DNA from: a virus
Lineage: Duplodnaviria > Heunggongvirae > Uroviricota > Caudoviricetes
IMG/VR virus record: IMGVR_UViG_2861079508_000001
Length of the DNA stretch: 64,000 nt
Reading direction: 5' to 3' (one strand)
Part shown: in pieces, positions 24,796 through 31,044 of the stretch
Layout: the number at the start of each line of letters is the position of its first letter
Numbering within the stretch: position 1 is the stretch's first letter
The notes under the pieces: model-generated
Database searches by the model: none
The model's input: the letters and a program-made list of their open reading frames with translations, nothing else
Told to the model about the DNA's origin: nothing
Made by a program: the position numbers and the translations under genes

Positions 24796-25182
24796 ATGTC
24801 TGACAACAAGATTGAATTTATAGAAAGTCGCTATGCTGCTTTTATCGCAGGGCTGATTGAATCCTCACCTATGAGTCAGGCCCAAATAGCCAGACTTATT
24901 GGTTATAAAAATGCCAACAACCTTTCTTTAATTAAAAGTGGCAAAATTCCTTTGCCTATCGATAAGGTTCGTCCGTTGGCGCTGGCGCTGGGTATTGAGC
25001 CAAGTCGTCTTATGATGATGGTGCTGGAAGAACGCCAACCTGAACTCGCAGCATTTTTATACAAAGAAGGCACCGCTCCTCTTAACGAGGACGAAAAACA
25101 GGTTCTTGCTGCATATAACGAGCGATTCGGTAAAGAGAAAGGCGCATCACAAAAGGTTGTTGAGGCCATAAAGTCTCTATGA
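24796..25182 (+). CDS. helix-turn-helix (XRE-like) transcriptional regulator
   Basis: 128 aa; SQAQIARLIGYKNANNLSLIKSGK helix-turn-helix; AT-rich 250-bp upstream region. Confidence 0.55.
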   Translation: MSDNKIEFIESRYAAFIAGLIESSPMSQAQIARLIGYKNANNLSLIKSGKIPLPIDKVRPLALALGIEPSRLMMMVLEERQPELAAFLYKEGTAPLNEDEKQVLAAYNERFGKEKGASQKVVEAIKSL

Positions 25183-26280
25183 AAAATTTACACGAATAAG
25201 CTCTGTTGATAGACGATCTCCCTTGAATTTGTGGTCAATTTCGTCTAAATCCGGTTGCTCTACGATTGATGCGATGTACGTCGAGAAACTTTCTAAGGCG
25301 TCTCGCATCTCGTCCATATAATCGTGCCGGTCGTAGACTCGATCTATCCCCTCAAGACTGTGGTTCATGATTTTGCGTGATACCTCCTGGCTTATGCCTA
25401 ATGCTGGGAAGTAACTACGCGCAGTGCGGCGCAAGTCTCGGGGTGTAAATGGCTCAAGCTCCATCAGTTCTGGTCGTTCCAGAATACGACGTAATGCCTG
25501 GGCTATTGCCACTTTAGACATAGGAAGGTCTTTCCCGATTTTTTTATTCGAAGGCACGAGCCACTGGCTGCCTTTACCGTATTCGAACAACTCTTCAATG
25601 CATGTGCGCATTAATGAGCTTAAAGGCAGAGAATGCTCACGGGCAGATTTGTTCCTCTTGCCTTGATTCCAAACCCCACGCTTAAGATTGAACTCACTTT
25701 TTTTAGCCCGCAGTACTTCGTCAGGTCGTCTTGCGGATACAAGACATAGCCTGGCCGCCCATTTTGTACCAGCACACACATTGAAGTAGTCCCATATATT
25801 CCAGAACACCCATACCTCTGCGTCGGTTAGCTTCCGCTCGCGAGGTGTGGGCTTTGCGCCACCGGCAACTTTGTTAAGTGACATATCGTTTAACGGTGAC
25901 ACGTCGATCATCCCCTGGAAGGCGCACCAGCTGAGGAACTGCTTCATCAGAGAGAAAACGCGGCGACCCATAACAATTTTGCCATCCAGTATTAGTGGGT
26001 TGACCAGTTGGTTCACCATGAACCTATTAATATCACTTACTTTTACATCGGCAATGTGCGGCAAAACATGTATCAAAATACAATGAACAGCGATCTCTGG
26101 CCGACGTCTTGTTATCAGCAGAGATAAGCGAGTGAATAACATGAATGCGTCCGAGAATCTCATGTCATTGCTGACCTGGGAGATCATAACGGCCTGCATT
26201 TGAGATGCTCTTTCGAGATACTCAATCGCCTCTTTTGAGGTGTTCTCCGCAGCGCGTGCTCTGTCAAAGCTATTTTTCAT
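25177..26280 (-). CDS. tyrosine recombinase / integrase (lambda Int-like catalytic domain)
   Basis: 367 aa; C-terminal TPRDLRRTARS and NHSLEGIDRVYDRHDY (box II, His, Tyr nucleophile). Confidence 0.7.
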   Translation of the reverse strand: MKNSFDRARAAENTSKEAIEYLERASQMQAVMISQVSNDMRFSDAFMLFTRLSLLITRRRPEIAVHCILIHVLPHIADVKVSDINRFMVNQLVNPLILDGKIVMGRRVFSLMKQFLSWCAFQGMIDVSPLNDMSLNKVAGGAKPTPRERKLTDAEVWVFWNIWDYFNVCAGTKWAARLCLVSARRPDEVLRAKKSEFNLKRGVWNQGKRNKSAREHSLPLSSLMRTCIEELFEYGKGSQWLVPSNKKIGKDLPMSKVAIAQALRRILERPELMELEPFTPRDLRRTARSYFPALGISQEVSRKIMNHSLEGIDRVYDRHDYMDEMRDALESFSTYIASIVEQPDLDEIDHKFKGDRLSTELIRVNFS

Positions 26281-26530
26281 ATGACAATCACCGAGTTACG
26301 CCGATGCACTGTATAAGTAAACAGTATATTAGGCATAGATTCTTATAGGATCAAGAGTAAAAGTAACTCATTTTCAGTAATGATTCCATACATAGTAGGT
26401 ATGGAATCATTGTAGGCCTTTTTTATAAAATCTGTGATTCTTCTCAGGATAAATTATCTAAACTAAAAATTGTGTTTTGTGTTGGCATCTGCTTGAATAG
26501 ACGCATGTTTATTCAGATATGGAATAATCA

Positions 26531-27067
26531 GTGAACAACCAAATTCATTGGGACTACCCATTCTCAGAAGAATTCGGCAGTGGGATGGTACACAGACAAT
26601 TCACTGTGGGAAGCACTATTTATGCCGTTGGGTTTGAACAAATATTGACGATGGATGATTTCACACGTAAGGGAGTTGATATCCTAAATGTACATCCAAC
26701 ATTCCGGTTTCCTCTGAGTGGTGTATGGGGAGTGATTTTTGACGAAATTGACCCTGTAGAAATGGATTTCAAAGGATTTCGGCATATCCAACATCAAGGC
26801 TTGGCAGGTGGTCAAGTGCTTTTGAATGTTGCAAGTATAATCTTTGACCATTATACTGTTTGTAACGCAGGAGCTTATGTCTTCTCCGCCGCAGACGACC
26901 ATCAGCATTTACGCAGAACTGACTTGGTAGACATTTACTGTAAGATACTAGGTCTAAATGGAAAACGTAAAAGTAGATTGTTCGCCAATGGTTTTCCTGG
27001 ATGGGAGGCATACTGTGATGTACCAACAGGAGGAAGAGGCTATGTCGTCACGACTGAAAGTTATTAA
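26531..27067 (+). CDS. hypothetical protein (178 aa, GTG start)
   Basis: plus-strand ORF in a minus-strand backbone; overlaps next small gene by 26 bp. Confidence 0.35.
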   Translation: MNNQIHWDYPFSEEFGSGMVHRQFTVGSTIYAVGFEQILTMDDFTRKGVDILNVHPTFRFPLSGVWGVIFDEIDPVEMDFKGFRHIQHQGLAGGQVLLNVASIIFDHYTVCNAGAYVFSAADDHQHLRRTDLVDIYCKILGLNGKRKSRLFANGFPGWEAYCDVPTGGRGYVVTTESY

Positions 27068-27269
27068 TTATTACCCCACCTCTGCAGAACGTTTGAGCCT
27101 TGAAATGGGCGAAAGACTACAGAAAGCTGCTGGTCAGGATTTAAAGAACAAGTTGGGTTCAGGGGAAATTAAACTGATTAACGGTAAATATGTAGGTGAA
27201 AGCCTGAAAGTTAATAGCACCTCTATGCTAAAAGCGCGGTTGCGTAAAGCGTATATCCCCGCTAAATGA
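27042..27269 (+). CDS. small hypothetical protein (75 aa, MSSRLKVINYYPT...)
   Basis: strong ribosome-binding site AGGAGGAAGAGG before ATG 27042; ends at an intrinsic terminator; track shows a longer ORF from 26958. Confidence 0.45.
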   Translation: MSSRLKVINYYPTSAERLSLEMGERLQKAAGQDLKNKLGSGEIKLINGKYVGESLKVNSTSMLKARLRKAYIPAK

Positions 27270-27298
27270 AAAGGCCTATATGGGCCTTTTCATTTTTA
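27270..27298. terminator. bidirectional intrinsic terminator (AAAGGCC-tatat-GGGCCTTTT plus T-run)
   Basis: read directly between convergent genes ending at 27269 and 27296. Confidence 0.6.
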
Positions 27299-27541
27299 TA
27301 GTGTACTCACCAGCGCCGCAAATTCCGTATACCCCCCAATATGCTCTCCATGTATGAATATCTGAGGTATGGTATCCACTGGTTTACCAACCTGGTTGCT
27401 CAACGTTTCTTTGTTGATCCCCGCAGATGTAATATCTATATACTCATAATCACCGTAGCCATGTCCCTTTAGTTGCTTCGCCAACTCGACCGCACGTTTG
27501 CAGTATGAGCAGTTATCTCGTCCGTAGATAGTGATCGTCAT
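27296..27541 (-). CDS. glutaredoxin-like protein (NrdC/GrxA-type)
   Basis: 81 aa; CSYC active site near N-terminus; thioredoxin-fold size. Confidence 0.7.
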   Translation of the reverse strand: MTITIYGRDNCSYCKRAVELAKQLKGHGYGDYEYIDITSAGINKETLSNQVGKPVDTIPQIFIHGEHIGGYTEFAALVSTL

Positions 27542-27608
27542 AACTTAACAAATACCTTTATAAATATTGATTCGAACATATCAGACTATACTACAAACAG
27601 ATTTTTTT

Positions 27609-27629
27609 GATAAGTATGTAGTAACTTAT
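27609..27629. promoter_or_regulatory. motif B upstream of the AT-rich orphan gene (plus orientation)
   Basis: GATAAGTATGTAGTAACTTAT; AAACAATTG half-site of motif A at 27643-27651. Confidence 0.4.
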
Positions 27630-27714
27630 TGATTGACTAGTAAACAATTGAAGTGATTACGACAATAGATTACAGTAAGGATTGCCTTGAAATGTACATT
27701 TTATAGAGGTTTTA

Positions 27715-28623
27715 ATGATTGGTAAGTTGTCTGATTCTTTGATTGAAAATAAATACAACGAATTTAGAGAAGAAATATCTTTACTTTTTGACTATTTAAA
27801 TCAGATAAATGATACAACAAAGAAAAATATAAAACGTCTTCTTAAAGAAGTGGAGTATGCACAAAATCCAGATACTATTATTAATATTAATGAAACTATT
27901 AAGATTAAGTGTGGCACAACGTTAGCTCGCCATTTATGTTCAAACCCATATACAGGTTCAACATTAGAGATAGGTAACAGCGCCATTGATTTAGAAGAAA
28001 AGATAAGATTGTGTAATACTTTGAAAAATAAACAATATCAGTGGGTTATTACTGAAGCCTATGAGTTACTGGAAGACTATATTGAGGCAATATATGTCTA
28101 TACTGTATGTGTTCGAAATGATTTATGGTCCTCAAGTGATTTTGGTAAGGTTGAAGATGATGAAATTGGGAAAAGGGAAGTTTATTACAGATTATTAAAA
28201 GCAAAAAGTAACCCATCGAAAAAAATAACTAAAATTTTCAGAAATAAAATACCTGGCTTCAAAGAGATAGAAACAAACAACAAGATTGGCAAAAACTATC
28301 GCTTTAACATCAAGCTAATTGAACTACTAAGACATACAATAGTACACAATAGTGGACGATTCAATGATACAGAAAAATTTATAAATAAGGTTTTAGATGA
28401 ATCTGAAATAAACGGTAAGAAAAGAGTTATTGGAGAAAGAGCTGTTAGAAGTTACATTACTAAAGTGCAAGAAGATGATATTGTGATGCTCTTAGAAAGA
28501 CCATCTGAAATTTTAGGTTCTTTTGGTGGGTATTTTAACAGAGCAAAATTTTTACTAAGTGATATTTTAGAATACTCACTAATCATTAAAGAAGAACTAA
28601 AATCATATCTAGGCAATCATTAA
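27715..28623 (+). CDS. AT-rich orphan protein with HEPN-like Rx4H motif; candidate Abi-like defence/anti-defence
   Basis: 302 aa; coding region visibly AT-rich versus flanks; motif LLRHTIVHNSGRF (R-x4-H); own upstream motif and own terminator; function is inference. Confidence 0.5.
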   Translation: MIGKLSDSLIENKYNEFREEISLLFDYLNQINDTTKKNIKRLLKEVEYAQNPDTIININETIKIKCGTTLARHLCSNPYTGSTLEIGNSAIDLEEKIRLCNTLKNKQYQWVITEAYELLEDYIEAIYVYTVCVRNDLWSSSDFGKVEDDEIGKREVYYRLLKAKSNPSKKITKIFRNKIPGFKEIETNNKIGKNYRFNIKLIELLRHTIVHNSGRFNDTEKFINKVLDESEINGKKRVIGERAVRSYITKVQEDDIVMLLERPSEILGSFGGYFNRAKFLLSDILEYSLIIKEELKSYLGNH

Positions 28624-28630
28624 CAAAAAA

Positions 28631-28658
28631 GGGGCCGAAGCCCCTTTGGATTTTGCGC
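28631..28658 (+). terminator. intrinsic terminator GGGGCCGAAGCCCC plus TTTGGATTTT
   Basis: read directly, 8 bp after the 27715..28623 stop. Confidence 0.65.
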
Positions 28659-28720
28659 TTAAAAAAGTGTTGCTAGGATGTTAGCAAGCTATGGTTAAGA
28701 ACGTCTGCCGTAATTGTCTA

Positions 28721-28799
28721 TCACAGCGTTGAGCGGTCTGGTTTATGTTAGCGGAGTCTTAATCGAGTTGATTAAAAGGCCAAACCGCTCAACGCTGTG
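28721..28799. repeat. long hairpin H0 (arms CACAGCGTTGAGCGGTCTGG / CCAAACCGCTCAACGCTGTG, ~38-nt loop)
   Basis: inverted repeat read directly, just 3' of tRNA-Ser on the minus strand. Confidence 0.5.
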
Positions 28800-28801
28800 T
28801 C

Positions 28802-28888
28802 TGGCGGAGAGTAATGGAATCGAACCATCATCGCTTGCGCAATGGGACGGTTTTCAAGACCGCTTGAGCACCATGCTCCCTACTCTCC
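28802..28888 (-). tRNA. tRNA-Ser (anticodon UGA), class II long variable arm
   Basis: folded by hand from the reverse complement: acceptor GGAGAGT/ACTCTCC, anticodon loop CTTGAAA, T-loop TTCGATT, 3' CCA. Confidence 0.8.
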
Positions 28889-28987
28889 AGCTATTGTGAT
28901 GGTCGGTGCTGAACTCCGACACAGGGTTGTAGCAAGCCCCGCAAAGCGCGCACTACTGTAGTTGCGGCACATCAGCCTGTGCATTCA

Positions 28988-29070
28988 TCACAACGGTAAG
29001 ATCACTACCTTTCGACCAGTCATTGTGCACATGAACGACGATTAACCGTAATGATCTTATCGTTGTGTTG
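28988..29070. repeat. long hairpin H1 (arms CACAACGGTAAGATCA / TGATCTTATCGTTGTG)
   Basis: inverted repeat read directly between tRNA-Ser and tRNA-Thr. Confidence 0.5.
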
Positions 29071-29115
29071 TGAAGCCAGATGCTTATCTTCTGGTTGCTT
29101 CAAAGAGCTGCACTT

Positions 29116-29208
29116 CCTCACAACGGTAAGAGCACTGGTCTGACTCTATCGATTTACGGCCTTGTGGGTCAGTATCGCCGATTCGCCCAATGCTCTTACC
29201 TGTTGTGT
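29116..29208. repeat. long hairpin H2 (arms CACAACGGTAAGAGCA / TGCTCTTACCTGTTGTG), paralogue of H1
   Basis: inverted repeat read directly; ends at tRNA-Thr. Confidence 0.5.
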
Positions 29209-29284
29209 TGGTGCCGGTTAACGGACTTGAACCGCTGGCCATTCGCTTACAAAGCGACTGCTCTACCAACTGAGCTAAACCGGC
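29209..29284 (-). tRNA. tRNA-Thr (anticodon UGU)
   Basis: hand fold: acceptor GCCGGTT/AACCGGC, D-arm GCTCAGTTGGTAGAGC, anticodon loop TTTGTAA, T-loop TTCAAGT, CCA. Confidence 0.8.
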
Positions 29285-29288
29285 AATT

Positions 29289-29375
29289 TGGTGGGGAGTG
29301 ATGGAGTCGAACCACCCGAGTCGCCATGACAGTAGATTTACAGTCTACACCGCTACCTCTACGGACTAACTCCCC
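29289..29375 (-). tRNA. tRNA-Tyr (anticodon GUA), class II
   Basis: hand fold: anticodon arm CAGACTGTAAATCTG-like (GACTGTAAATC), long variable arm, T-loop TTCGACT, CCA. Confidence 0.85.
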
Positions 29376-29380
29376 TAAAT

Positions 29381-29455
29381 TGGCGATGGTGGGTGGATTC
29401 GAACCACCGACCAGTTGGTTAACAGCCAACTGCTCTACCGCTGAGCTACACCATC
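29381..29455 (-). tRNA. tRNA-Asn (anticodon GUU)
   Basis: hand fold: perfect 7-bp acceptor GATGGTG/CACCATC, anticodon loop CTGTTAA, T-loop TTCGAAT, CCA. Confidence 0.85.
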
Positions 29456-29717
29456 AATTCAGCACTGCCAGTATTTATTACTCAACAGTGCCAATCGCGA
29501 CGGTTTAGTTTCTGCCAGGAAACGCACCGCTACTTGCACTTTTCGTTAGTGCCAGACGCTTTCGACTTCGCTCAATAGTAGAAGGCAAAATCTTTAAGTA
29601 GATGATGTTTCTGAGGACAGCACCTACTTTGTAATTTATACAATGTGATGTATGGAATCATTTGTTGTGAAAACAGGCACCAATGGCAACAGTGGTTAAA
29701 CCTACACAACAATCCCG

Positions 29718-29846
29718 TCTTCACAACGTTGAGGCCACTACTCCGATTGAATGTTTGCCCAACATGTTACATATCAACGCTCGCCGGTATCTCTGTGAAT
29801 AGAACCTTAGAATTGATAAAAATGTAATGGCCTCAACGTTGTGTGC
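29718..29846. repeat. long hairpin H3 (arms CACAACGTTGAGGCCAC / ATGGCCTCAACGTTGTG, ~93-nt loop)
   Basis: inverted repeat read directly in the non-coding region. Confidence 0.45.
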
Positions 29847-30004
29847 TGGCTAACCATACCAGCCGGGCTACGTCGCCGCTTTTTAACCCAGTATAAACGA
29901 CATAATTGAACAAAATGACGTAACAGGATGGGCGGTCAGTGGCTAAGAATCCGGGAGTCATATGGAGTTGAAAATATACCAACCGCCCATTCTGTTACTT
30001 CATC

Positions 30005-30028
30005 GGAGGGAACATGAATGTTCCCTCC
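30005..30028. other. perfect 10-bp stem hairpin GGAGGGAACA-tgaa-TGTTCCCTCC
   Basis: read directly; contains a GGAGG and ATG. Confidence 0.45.
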
Positions 30029-30202
30029 TGCGTTCTGCAATCACACTCGCTCAGTGTGTCCCATTTCGGTAACGAGGCTGGAAACTGACCTCGCTGGTGT
30101 TTGGCTTATTAGGCTACTGCCAGATAGACTTCTTCGTTTGCACTTGTATTTAAGTTCAAACAGTCGCGTCTCAACGAAAACAAAGTCATCTTATACATAA
30201 AA

Positions 30203-30225
30203 GATAGGTAAGTAAATACTTATCG
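30203..30225. promoter_or_regulatory. motif B at the edge of the 770-bp non-coding region
   Basis: GATAGGTAAGTAAATACTTATCG. Confidence 0.35.
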
Positions 30226-30233
30226 AAATGTTT

Positions 30234-30524
30234 TTATTCGGTTGTGACTTTTTTGATCAAGGCCACTCTACGATCAGGTGTTCTTGTGATGGTGGCAGTG
30301 AATCGTTTCGCTTGGATAGTAATGGTTTCGTTCTCATTAAGTTGCCCGTAGCGAGTTTCCACAAGGGTACCAAGACGCCACAGGCCATCATCAATACGTT
30401 TATGGCTAGCAAATTTAATCAGCAGCAGTTTTACGACTAACTGCCCTACGTAAAAAGCGAATGCGACTCCGGCTGCCATAAAATAGGTTGCCAACCACCA
30501 TTCCCAAGAAGTTAAATTGCTCAT
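30234..30524 (-). CDS. small membrane protein (96 aa)
   Basis: N-terminal hydrophobic helix WWLATYFMAAGVAFAFYVGQLVV. Confidence 0.4.
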   Translation of the reverse strand: MSNLTSWEWWLATYFMAAGVAFAFYVGQLVVKLLLIKFASHKRIDDGLWRLGTLVETRYGQLNENETITIQAKRFTATITRTPDRRVALIKKVTTE

Positions 30525-30669
30525 TTTCTCACCTTTGTTTCATGAACTACCCGATACACACGCTTTCCGATGCACAGTGTTTTGGTTTTAAGTTCCTGCT
30601 TAATTAAGTCACGACAGATGCCGAAGCCGATAAGGAAGCCACCCATAAAAGCTAATGAGATGTATGGAA

Positions 30670-30885
30670 TCATTTTAACACTCCTGATTCTACTAATTGC
30701 TGTAGCAATACTTTCCCTTTATCAGTTAACTGGTAGTTGGCCGAACACTTCGTTTCAGAAACGTTTGCAACCAACCCTAAACGCTCTAACTTAGCTCGCG
30801 TTTTAGGCTTCCAGTACTCAGGGAACTCCGGCCACTTACTGATTTCATGAAGCGTTTCCTTCTCCCGTTTACTTAATACGATCAT
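30670..30885 (-). CDS. hypothetical protein (71 aa)
   Basis: ORF only. Confidence 0.35.
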   Translation of the reverse strand: MIVLSKREKETLHEISKWPEFPEYWKPKTRAKLERLGLVANVSETKCSANYQLTDKGKVLLQQLVESGVLK

Positions 30886-31044
30886 CCTTAATCTCCTTCA
30901 CGGTGTTGGTTATTTCTACAATGCGATAAATGCGACCGCGTCTTTCTATAACACCGTTTTTAATGTAGTCATTAATGCAACTGGACATCACCACAATACC
31001 GATGAAAAAACCAACTGCTAAAAATGCAATCATCCAGCCGAGCA

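Follow-up and report, generated by a model that had tools for sequence, protein, structure and literature searches.

The DNA analysed here (the window, a stretch of 64 kb) is a portion of an approximately 108-kb phage-plasmid of the SSU5/pHCM2 type, and its backbone is 96-99% identical to those of Escherichia phage CMS-2020a and phage Cyrano. We examined an open reading frame (ORF) of 302 amino acids on its plus strand (27715-28623, stop codon included), whose product is a member of a previously unnamed family of approximately 300-residue, stand-alone HEPN-like proteins, and which the phage-plasmid carries as accessory cargo in a replacement hotspot. We estimate with a probability of roughly 0.55 that the protein acts as a solo HEPN-type ribonuclease (RNase) in defence or exclusion. 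The gene is most likely a single-protein abortive-infection or exclusion module.

Conservation and predicted fold of the protein family

An exhaustive HMMER search with a profile of six sequences revealed 453 family representatives (clusters at 50% identity, E<=1e-3), 142 of them at E<=1e-30; a word-indexed search recovered just 8 family clusters. An earlier reading of the window, made from its sequence alone (hereafter the sequence-only reading), had described the gene as an orphan, which these numbers contradict. Among the 150 HMMER matches listed, most were full-length, in proteins of 280-320 amino acids, and the rest were shorter fragments. The family members come from Proteobacteria, Campylobacterota, Bacteroidota, Spirochaetota, Nitrospirota and other taxa. 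None of the models of Pfam, NCBIfam and PADLOC reached its threshold on any family member. The window protein had no PADLOC match at E<=10 (PADLOC-DB v2.0.0) and the 128 homologues described below gave scattered single PADLOC matches only, with E of 6e-4 or weaker. In PHROGs, the family phrog_35492, annotated as of 'unknown function', matched the protein over its full length.

Conservation was read from an alignment of 128 homologues, which showed 17-37% identity to the window protein, except for two close alleles from phage-plasmids. Exactly three columns of this alignment were invariant, namely E117, R206 and H211, and N105, Q107, W110, Y127, W138, E186, N189, H207, V210 and G214 were nearly so. 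The family motif can be written as R-[H/N]-x-I-V-H-x-x-G, with R206 and H211 present in 128/128 sequences, H (124) or N (4) at position 207, and G214 in 125/128. The window protein contains a single R-x4-H, the RHTIVH of residues 206-211, which was also pointed out in the sequence-only reading. As a bare pattern it is no better than chance, since it occurred in 19% of composition-matched shuffles of the protein and in 17 of the 50 window ORFs of at least 100 amino acids; its significance comes solely from the conservation of R and H in all the homologues.

The AlphaFold2 model obtained from the 128-sequence alignment had a predicted local distance difference test (pLDDT) score of 94.5 and a predicted template modelling (pTM) score of 0.90. 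In order, it comprises a helix (residues 2-50), a beta-hairpin, helix 93-133, an insert of short helices (134-194), helix 195-212, a loop (213-218), helices 219-229 and 235-245, a second hairpin, and helix 276-300. The protein varies most in its N-terminal module (residues 2-91; 27718-27987, plus strand), where a 49-residue helix leads through a linker of low conservation to a beta-hairpin; conservation there is 0.4-1.3 bits per segment in comparison to 2.3-2.5 bits in the core helices. Helix 93-133 (27991-28113, plus strand), the predicted counterpart of HEPN 'helix 2', bears N105, Q107, W110, E117 (codon 28063-28065), E120 and Y127. It is followed by the short-helix insert (28114-28296, plus strand), located between the putative catalytic helices and containing the conserved W138, D142, R176, E186 and N189. 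Helix 195-212 (28297-28356, plus strand; HEPN 'helix 3') ends in R206-H207-T-I-V-H211-N-S-G214 (codons 28330-28356), the predicted RNase active site.

According to Anantharaman et al. 2013 (PMC3710099), HEPN proteins have an R-x4-6-H motif with a polar N, D or H following the R, located at the end of helix 3 where it runs into a loop. Further traits are an acidic residue upstream in helix 2 (typically in the context E-x3-[KR]), an insert between helices 2 and 3, and often a kinked helix 4; non-catalytic HEPN families typically lose R-x4-6-H (PMC3710099). In the family studied here, R206 and H211 form such a motif, the residue after R is always polar, the motif lies at a helix end leading into a loop in the predicted model, and the invariant E117 (128/128) supplies the acidic residue of helix 2. 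In the model, E117, R206 and H211 occupy the positions expected for the HEPN active site, in a layout that appears canonical for HEPN. Membership in the HEPN superfamily is well supported by the motif together with the predicted structure, and we regard it as highly probable.

Several results weigh against this assignment and the RNase reading that goes with it. The E-x3-[KR] context is absent, as E117 is followed by x3-D121. In fold matching, generic and designed helical bundles scored the same as HEPN proteins, and a Foldseek search of the first model against the PDB found nothing at E<=0.001. Matches to HEPN families remained sub-threshold: DUF3644 matched residues 182-223 of the window protein with E=2.9 and 7.9 bits, and was found in 3 of the 128 members (best 0.0065), with HEPN_Apea at 0.022. 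In a direct comparison, EC042_2821 was located in E. coli 042, 99 PF12358 proteins were gathered, and the profiles were aligned by hhalign (47 sequences in the DUF3644 profile). Only the motif helix was aligned (21 columns, LRHTIVH on FRDQAVH, R on R and H on H), with a probability of 0.65% and P=0.087, which is not significant; thus, we do not claim any specific homology to DUF3644. Membership in this family (PF12358) was rejected on the same grounds and on the 7.9 bits obtained against a gathering score of 27.6 bits. 

A weak match to a Csx1/Csm6 model was also found in the family, besides DUF3644 and HEPN_Apea, and sequence searches of the PDB with two profiles gave spurious matches only (ribosomal uS19, SNAP-25 and CmlS). 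The sequence-only reading had likened the protein to HEPN RNases of the Abi_2 type. Its HEPN part is retained here on the basis of the motif and the predicted structure, and its Abi_2 part was rejected on the basis of the Pfam search: Abi_2 (PF07751) had no match at E<=10 in the window protein and was not among the families matched by the 128 members. A similarity to TrmL (TIGR00185, tRNA wobble 2'-O-methyltransferase) was collinear and recurrent (P0020, P0017, P0147, P0043 and P0073, residues ~85-200), with 14-24 bits against a cutoff of 190 and a best E of 2e-5. We judged it to be probably chance or convergent, because the region is all-helical in the confident model and the score is below the cutoff. 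Positions 83-169 of the family profile (window residues ~95-180) weakly matched the C-terminal helices of the chloramphenicol halogenase CmlS (PDB 3i3l, E 0.0086), the match spanning the N..Y..EAYE.F..FL..Y....FW helix, and a match to NF033113 was noticed in 8 family members.

Replacement slot, gene context and flanking elements

Homology of the window to Cyrano ends at 27541 and restarts at 28624, the first base past the ORF stop codon, and the slot of Cyrano holds instead an unrelated 351-bp gene on the minus strand. By tblastn, the gene was found in 57 PLSDB plasmids (28 Escherichia, 27 Klebsiella, 1 Citrobacter, 1 Pseudomonas), all of them non-mobilizable and, apart from the Pseudomonas plasmid, 105-126 kb long; the latter measures 190 kb and was matched weakly and in part. 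For the neighbouring backbone ligase the number of plasmids is 758, with 433 of these at >=90% identity. The gene is therefore accessory in SSU5-type phage-plasmids, carried by only ~7-13% of the related ones, and is not part of the conserved core. The protein is identical to the CMS-2020a copy and to those in 13 of the plasmid records listed, and 22 records share at least 99% identity with it. Identical copies of the protein are recorded on no fewer than 1000 public E. coli contigs, and every public source labels it 'hypothetical'. The longest contig in the cluster of the exact protein (P0156) measures 4.89 Mb, which would mean that the phage-plasmid is integrated in a chromosome there or that the assembly is artefactual.

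The gene exists as discrete alleles at ~100%, 56-59%, 43% and 38-40% identity, and those with inspected loci (window/CMS-2020a, 59% and 38-40%) occupy the identical slot in the identical orientation. Backbones that are 97-98% identical carry protein alleles just 59% identical. In a sliding-window analysis of the aligned sequences, the nucleotide identity to the 59% allele (L006) jumped from ~0.7 to 0.95-1.0 in the last 70 nucleotides of the ORF (28554-28623, plus strand), a sign that alleles were replaced by recombination and that a junction lies within the gene. Several gene copies are frameshifted or truncated, including proteins P0005 and P0006 and plasmid CP012114, and such repeated inactivation would agree with the gene being costly or toxic. 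The gene is split or frameshifted in Klebsiella phage-plasmids that form a clonal group, and some E. coli copies are likewise affected; records with a disrupted gene are CP110593, NZ_CP031803, CP110730, CP110603 and NZ_LR890257/705/503/429 (111,122-111,123 bp), as well as NZ_CP072464 (111,878 bp).

The GC content of the ORF is 0.292 in comparison to 0.465 in the remaining window, in agreement with the sequence-only reading, which took this as a sign of recent foreign acquisition. The latter conclusion does not hold, since low GC is a family-wide property: the gene was more AT-rich than its flanks at 25 of 26 family loci (by 11 GC points on average), and all the phage-plasmid alleles have 29-32% GC despite their divergence to 38-59% identity.

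Clustering of neighbours at 23 loci from very diverse bacteria (including Lonsdalea, Variovorax, Collimonas, Undibacterium, Oceanospirillum, Sulfurimonas, Sulfurospirillum, Treponema, Bacteroidales, Aminicenantes and Nitrospira) revealed no conserved partner. In the cassette, a small-ORF listing and a tandem-repeat search gave no credible small ORF and no tandem repeat or repeat RNA, and we thus consider the gene to be a one-gene unit. Defence neighbours were scored with PADLOC and Pfam among three genes on either side (108 neighbours). Defence genes were present near the family member at no fewer than 8 of the 23 loci and made up ~15% of the neighbours, well in excess of their typical share of 1-2% of genes. 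The family member adjoins PDC-S15 at L011 (E 3e-93), PD-T7-5 at L025 (4e-120) and the MADS mad3/mad8 giant protein at L027 (2e-146). In a Campylobacterales metagenome-assembled genome (L023, 164-3420), the stop of a type IIG restriction-modification (R-M) gene (6e-189) overlaps the start of the family member by 4 bp, which suggests that the two are co-transcribed in that lineage. Within three genes we also found PD-Lambda-1 (L033, 4e-181), PDC-S65 and PDC-S69 (L028), a SIR2-like protein (L014) and a methyltransferase (L022), and other defence genes among the neighbours were AbiE, ToxN, HigB, Avs4, PDC-S13 and a type I specificity subunit. Chromosomal members predominate in the family and are not adjacent to tRNA genes, and 11 IMG/VR viral contigs also carry a member, often close to a contig end. 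Judged by these sequence contexts, the gene behaves as mobile defence cargo. 

Contigs of Thermodesulfobacteriota carrying a 30%-identical homologue (L007-L009, gene at 10-927 or 254-1171) repeatedly end immediately ahead of its start, which hints at a repeat or mobile element beside the gene; their convergent 562-amino-acid neighbour has a weak PADLOC match to PDC-M28C (E 5e-9).

In the window, a Shine-Dalgarno-like AGAGG (containing GAGG) can be read from the sequence 5 nucleotides upstream of the ATG (27705-27709, plus strand). The 302-residue ORF of the sequence-only reading stands, together with this ribosome-binding site. The neighbours it had named were also confirmed. On the left is a glutaredoxin gene (27296-27541, minus strand), divergent from the ORF, and a tyrosine recombinase (25177-26280) lies ~1.4 kb away on the same side, with two unknown ORFs between. 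On the right is tRNA-Ser (28802-28888, minus strand), at the edge of a cluster of Ser-UGA, Thr-UGU, Tyr-GUA and Asn-GUU genes (28802-29455), all on the minus strand and convergent to the ORF. An Rfam scan of 26000-31000 found tRNAs only. Among close relatives, the tRNA set is Ser-Thr-Tyr-Asn in the window, CMS-2020a and L006, Ser-Thr-Asn in Cyrano, and Ser-Asn in L003-L005. The spacer between tRNA-Ser and tRNA-Thr is 320 bp long in the window (28889-29208), with no Rfam match, in comparison to 8 bp in Cyrano. Co-variation of the gene with the tRNA set, especially with tRNA-Tyr, was considered and rejected, as loci with the gene have Ser/Thr/Tyr/Asn or Ser/Asn, and Cyrano, without the gene, has Ser/Thr/Asn. 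The segment 26412-27295 (ORFs 26531-27067 and 26958-27269, plus strand, neither with a Pfam match) is non-homologous to relatives with 97-98% identical backbones, in which this slot is occupied by a YafO-family toxin and a neighbour of 182/201 amino acids, joined in L003-L005 by colicin-M-like and microcin-like genes, PhoH and a gp49-like gene. The integrase and the tRNA cluster flank the slot, a cargo hotspot rich in toxins.

The upstream region of the cassette (27542-27714, plus strand) consists of 173 AT-rich base pairs between the divergent glutaredoxin start and the ORF. Alignment of three allele classes indicated that the blocks GACTATAC and TAAGTA-N-GTAG-N-TA-N-CTA are conserved in it. 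The perfect palindrome ATAAGTATGTAGTAACTTAT (27610-27629, plus strand), the 'motif B' of the sequence-only reading, is one of at least nine gene-oriented dispersed elements; its pattern has 14 matches in the window versus 2.5 expected, and none of 100 shuffles got to 14. As had been claimed, the cassette has its own upstream region with this motif: the palindrome travels with the cassette, because it is kept in three divergent allele classes and missing from the slot of Cyrano, although Cyrano retains neighbouring backbone copies of this ATAAGTA-N-GTA element. The 20-nucleotide sites of the element (at 2400, 15711, 24548, 27610, 30204, 33719, 38987, 49503 and 56403), with the imperfect palindrome ATAAGT-N8-ACTTAT, are intergenic, point to the downstream gene and are located 3-177 bp ahead of the starts of at least eight backbone transcription units. 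The copy at 27610 is the sole one facing the plus strand. The element looks like a candidate phage-plasmid-specific promoter or repressor operator, which could define a regulon. No sigma-70 promoter was found for the ORF at the threshold of the scanner; a candidate found by hand, TTGAAG-17-TACAGT, had an 8/12 match and was conserved in the closer allele only, and is not claimed here.

The ORF had also been credited with an intrinsic terminator of its own, which is rejected here. The GC-rich hairpin GGGGCC-GAAG-CCCC with its flanking A and T runs (28628-28647) is base-for-base identical in Cyrano, which is without the ORF, and so it is a backbone terminator outside the cassette. The terminator scanner called it solely for the minus strand. 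There, a clean U-tract, UUUUUUGUU, comes next and faces the convergent tRNA operon, and the plus-strand tail of the hairpin is an interrupted UUUGGAUUUUG. The folding energy was -13.2 kcal/mol for the plus strand and -15.4 kcal/mol for the minus strand. This may possibly be a bidirectional backbone element, common with the convergent tRNA operon.

Proposed mechanism and alternative explanations

In silico, the protein is helical, and its only invariant residues, E117 and R206-x4-H211, are placed at HEPN active-site positions. As in other HEPN enzymes, the R-x4-H motifs of two protomers would be juxtaposed to form a composite active site, which would cleave RNA independently of metal. At rest the protein may be an inactive oligomer, and a component of a phage or other mobile element that invades the cell would activate it; the sensing could be performed by the variable N-terminal helix and the hairpins. 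We propose the N-terminal helix, the linker and the hairpins as the sensing or oligomerisation surface because conservation is lowest there. The default-off state, activation by a trigger and abortive outcome are proposed because of the lack of an antitoxin or partner and because of the precedent of HepS (STM14_3211; PDB 9oik), a 'HEPN Solo' abortive-infection protein encoded without a partner in an accessory slot of the Salmonella prophage Gifsy-1 (PMC13043305). In its resting state HepS is an inactive tetramer; tail-tip proteins of siphoviruses activate it, upon which it cuts tRNAs in their anticodon loops (PMC13043305). Once activated, the window protein would cut cellular RNA. The analogy to HepS, PrrC and RloC puts tRNA anticodon loops first among the candidate targets, and messenger or ribosomal RNA are possible ones. 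The cleavage would leave 2',3'-cyclic phosphate ends, arrest translation and block the replication of the invader. The 38-59% divergent alleles of the same slot may then reflect turnover or diversification of trigger specificity.

A HEPN RNase could also serve the phage-plasmid itself, as an addiction toxin that kills or arrests cured cells, or in competition between elements by exclusion of other plasmids. Ishtar proteins, with an N-terminal HEPN domain (DUF4145 or DUF3644), cause plasmid loss and exclude RP4 (10.64898/2026.07.06.735840), the gene studied here resides on a low-copy plasmid-prophage, and the hotspot of its relatives holds YafO-type toxins and colicin-M and microcin-like genes. 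Plasmid p2 of K. pneumoniae Kp1604 carries a family member (L034, 3607-4521; 104788-105702 of CP085480) which is 96% identical to the P0007 allele, and curing of p2 raises plasmid uptake in addition to phage burst (PMC8969562), a precedent also for the defence or exclusion module favoured above; this phenotype is, however, that of the whole plasmid, was attributed by its authors to R-M (PMC8969562) and is circumstantial for the gene. We consider an addiction or competition toxin unlikely, as no antitoxin candidate was found (no conserved neighbour, small ORF or repeat RNA), the majority of the family lies on chromosomes, in defence islands and not on plasmids, and the architecture is unlike that of Ishtar. 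Moreover, a gene carried by so small a part of the related phage-plasmids is not needed for their maintenance. The directional ATAAGTA-N-GTA element in the cassette, like those ahead of the backbone transcription units, and the convergent orientation to the tRNA cluster in the phage-plasmid allele classes inspected would suit an RNase of the lytic cycle, expressed upon induction or infection with the backbone operons and acting in host shut-off, RNA turnover or processing of the tRNA operon. This possibility appears quite improbable for a gene that is accessory and replaceable (as in Cyrano), has chromosomal relatives outside phages, beside R-M and other defence genes and away from tRNA genes, and coexists with tRNA sets that vary independently of it. 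We also considered that the HEPN protein and the neighbouring tRNA genes could be a functional pair, in which the activated nuclease would cut certain host tRNAs and starve the translation of a competing phage. On this very doubtful reading, the Ser-UGA, Thr-UGU, Tyr-GUA and Asn-GUU tRNAs would be cleavage-resistant substitutes for the phage-plasmid's own lytic cycle, giving self-immunity without an antitoxin, a suggestion to which we attach just as little weight; an equally faint prospect is that the divergent slot alleles would constitute a polymorphic receptor locus with different triggers. The pairing is weakened by the independent variation of the tRNA sets, by gene-less relatives that keep their tRNAs and by the chromosomal members not adjacent to tRNA genes.

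The protein might not be a nuclease at all, but a regulatory, scaffolding or ligand-binding helical bundle of the MtlR type, or an unrelated bundle whose R-H-x3-H binds a metal or ligand. The unspecific fold matches, in which generic bundles score like HEPN proteins, the empty Foldseek result, the lack of a significant profile match to any HEPN family and the missing E-x3-[KR] context all agree with this. Yet non-catalytic HEPN families lose R-x4-6-H (PMC3710099), whereas here E, R and H are the sole invariants in 128 sequences and lie at canonical positions in the predicted model, which makes a non-nuclease rather unlikely. The sequence-only reading had interpreted the gene as a defence or anti-defence gene. 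An anti-defence protein, with which the phage-plasmid would disable a host immune system, agrees with the position of the gene as AT-rich cargo in a phage accessory hotspot, but the family is mostly chromosomal and found among defence genes, and 300 amino acids with a conserved enzyme-like site are unlike typical small inhibitors. We know of no HEPN anti-defence precedent and regard this option as extremely unlikely. The defence or abortive-infection part of that interpretation gained partial support from the defence-gene context and the HEPN-like motif, and lost the link to Abi_2.

If a solo HEPN RNase in defence or exclusion is confirmed, a widespread unannotated family would join the small set of single-protein HEPN immune effectors. 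Defence-annotation pipelines based on the Pfam, NCBIfam and PADLOC libraries would miss it, because no model there recognises the family. Besides the many E. coli contigs with the exact protein, related alleles are present in Klebsiella SSU5-type phage-plasmids of clinical isolates, and p2 of Kp1604 is the one among these plasmids with a published anti-phage and anti-plasmid phenotype. The gene could influence the host range in phage therapy as well as competition between plasmids. One hotspot with at least four deeply diverged alleles in near-identical backbones would also be a convenient natural system for the evolution of trigger specificity in a solo sensor-effector.

Comparison with known systems

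HEPN-MNT toxins (HepT/DUF86) and proteins of the HI0074 type (PDB 1jog, 8xdj, 7ae2 and 5yep) are 130-140 amino acids long, and the window protein is twice as large. These toxins are neutralised by an adjacent MNT nucleotidyltransferase antitoxin, whereas neither an MNT gene nor any conserved neighbour accompanies the present family at the 23 loci; in the window, no MNT gene adjoins the ORF, which is flanked by glutaredoxin and tRNA-Ser. Abi_2 proteins (AbiD/AbiD1/AbiF, PF07751) are single-gene abortive-infection HEPN proteins on mobile elements, as the window protein would be, but their motif is of the R-N-x-x-A-H type in comparison to R-H-x-I-V-H here. The only Pfam family touching the motif region is DUF3644, the EC042_2821-type HEPN (PF12358), to which HEC-08 (Payne et al. 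2024) and some Ishtar proteins belong. In HEC-08, the H128 mutant loses defence (Payne et al. 2024). DUF3644 proteins are defence-associated and are fused to winged helix-turn-helix, restriction endonuclease or zinc-finger domains, while the present family stands alone, and the residue after R is D in DUF3644 and H in the window protein. Ishtar additionally has a C-terminal beta-rich domain, unlike the architecture of the window protein.

HepS is the closest functional precedent, being a solo HEPN in a mobile element. We did not detect any sequence relationship between the two proteins, and 9oik was not matched by the family profile even at E<=10. The window protein is also longer (302 amino acids versus 218 in 9oik_A) and has an additional 49-residue N-terminal helix, two beta-hairpins and a C-terminal helix, with R-H-x-I-V-H-x-x-G as its motif. 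It represents a new unnamed family, probably within the known class of HEPN solo defence effectors, which is plausible rather than surprising.

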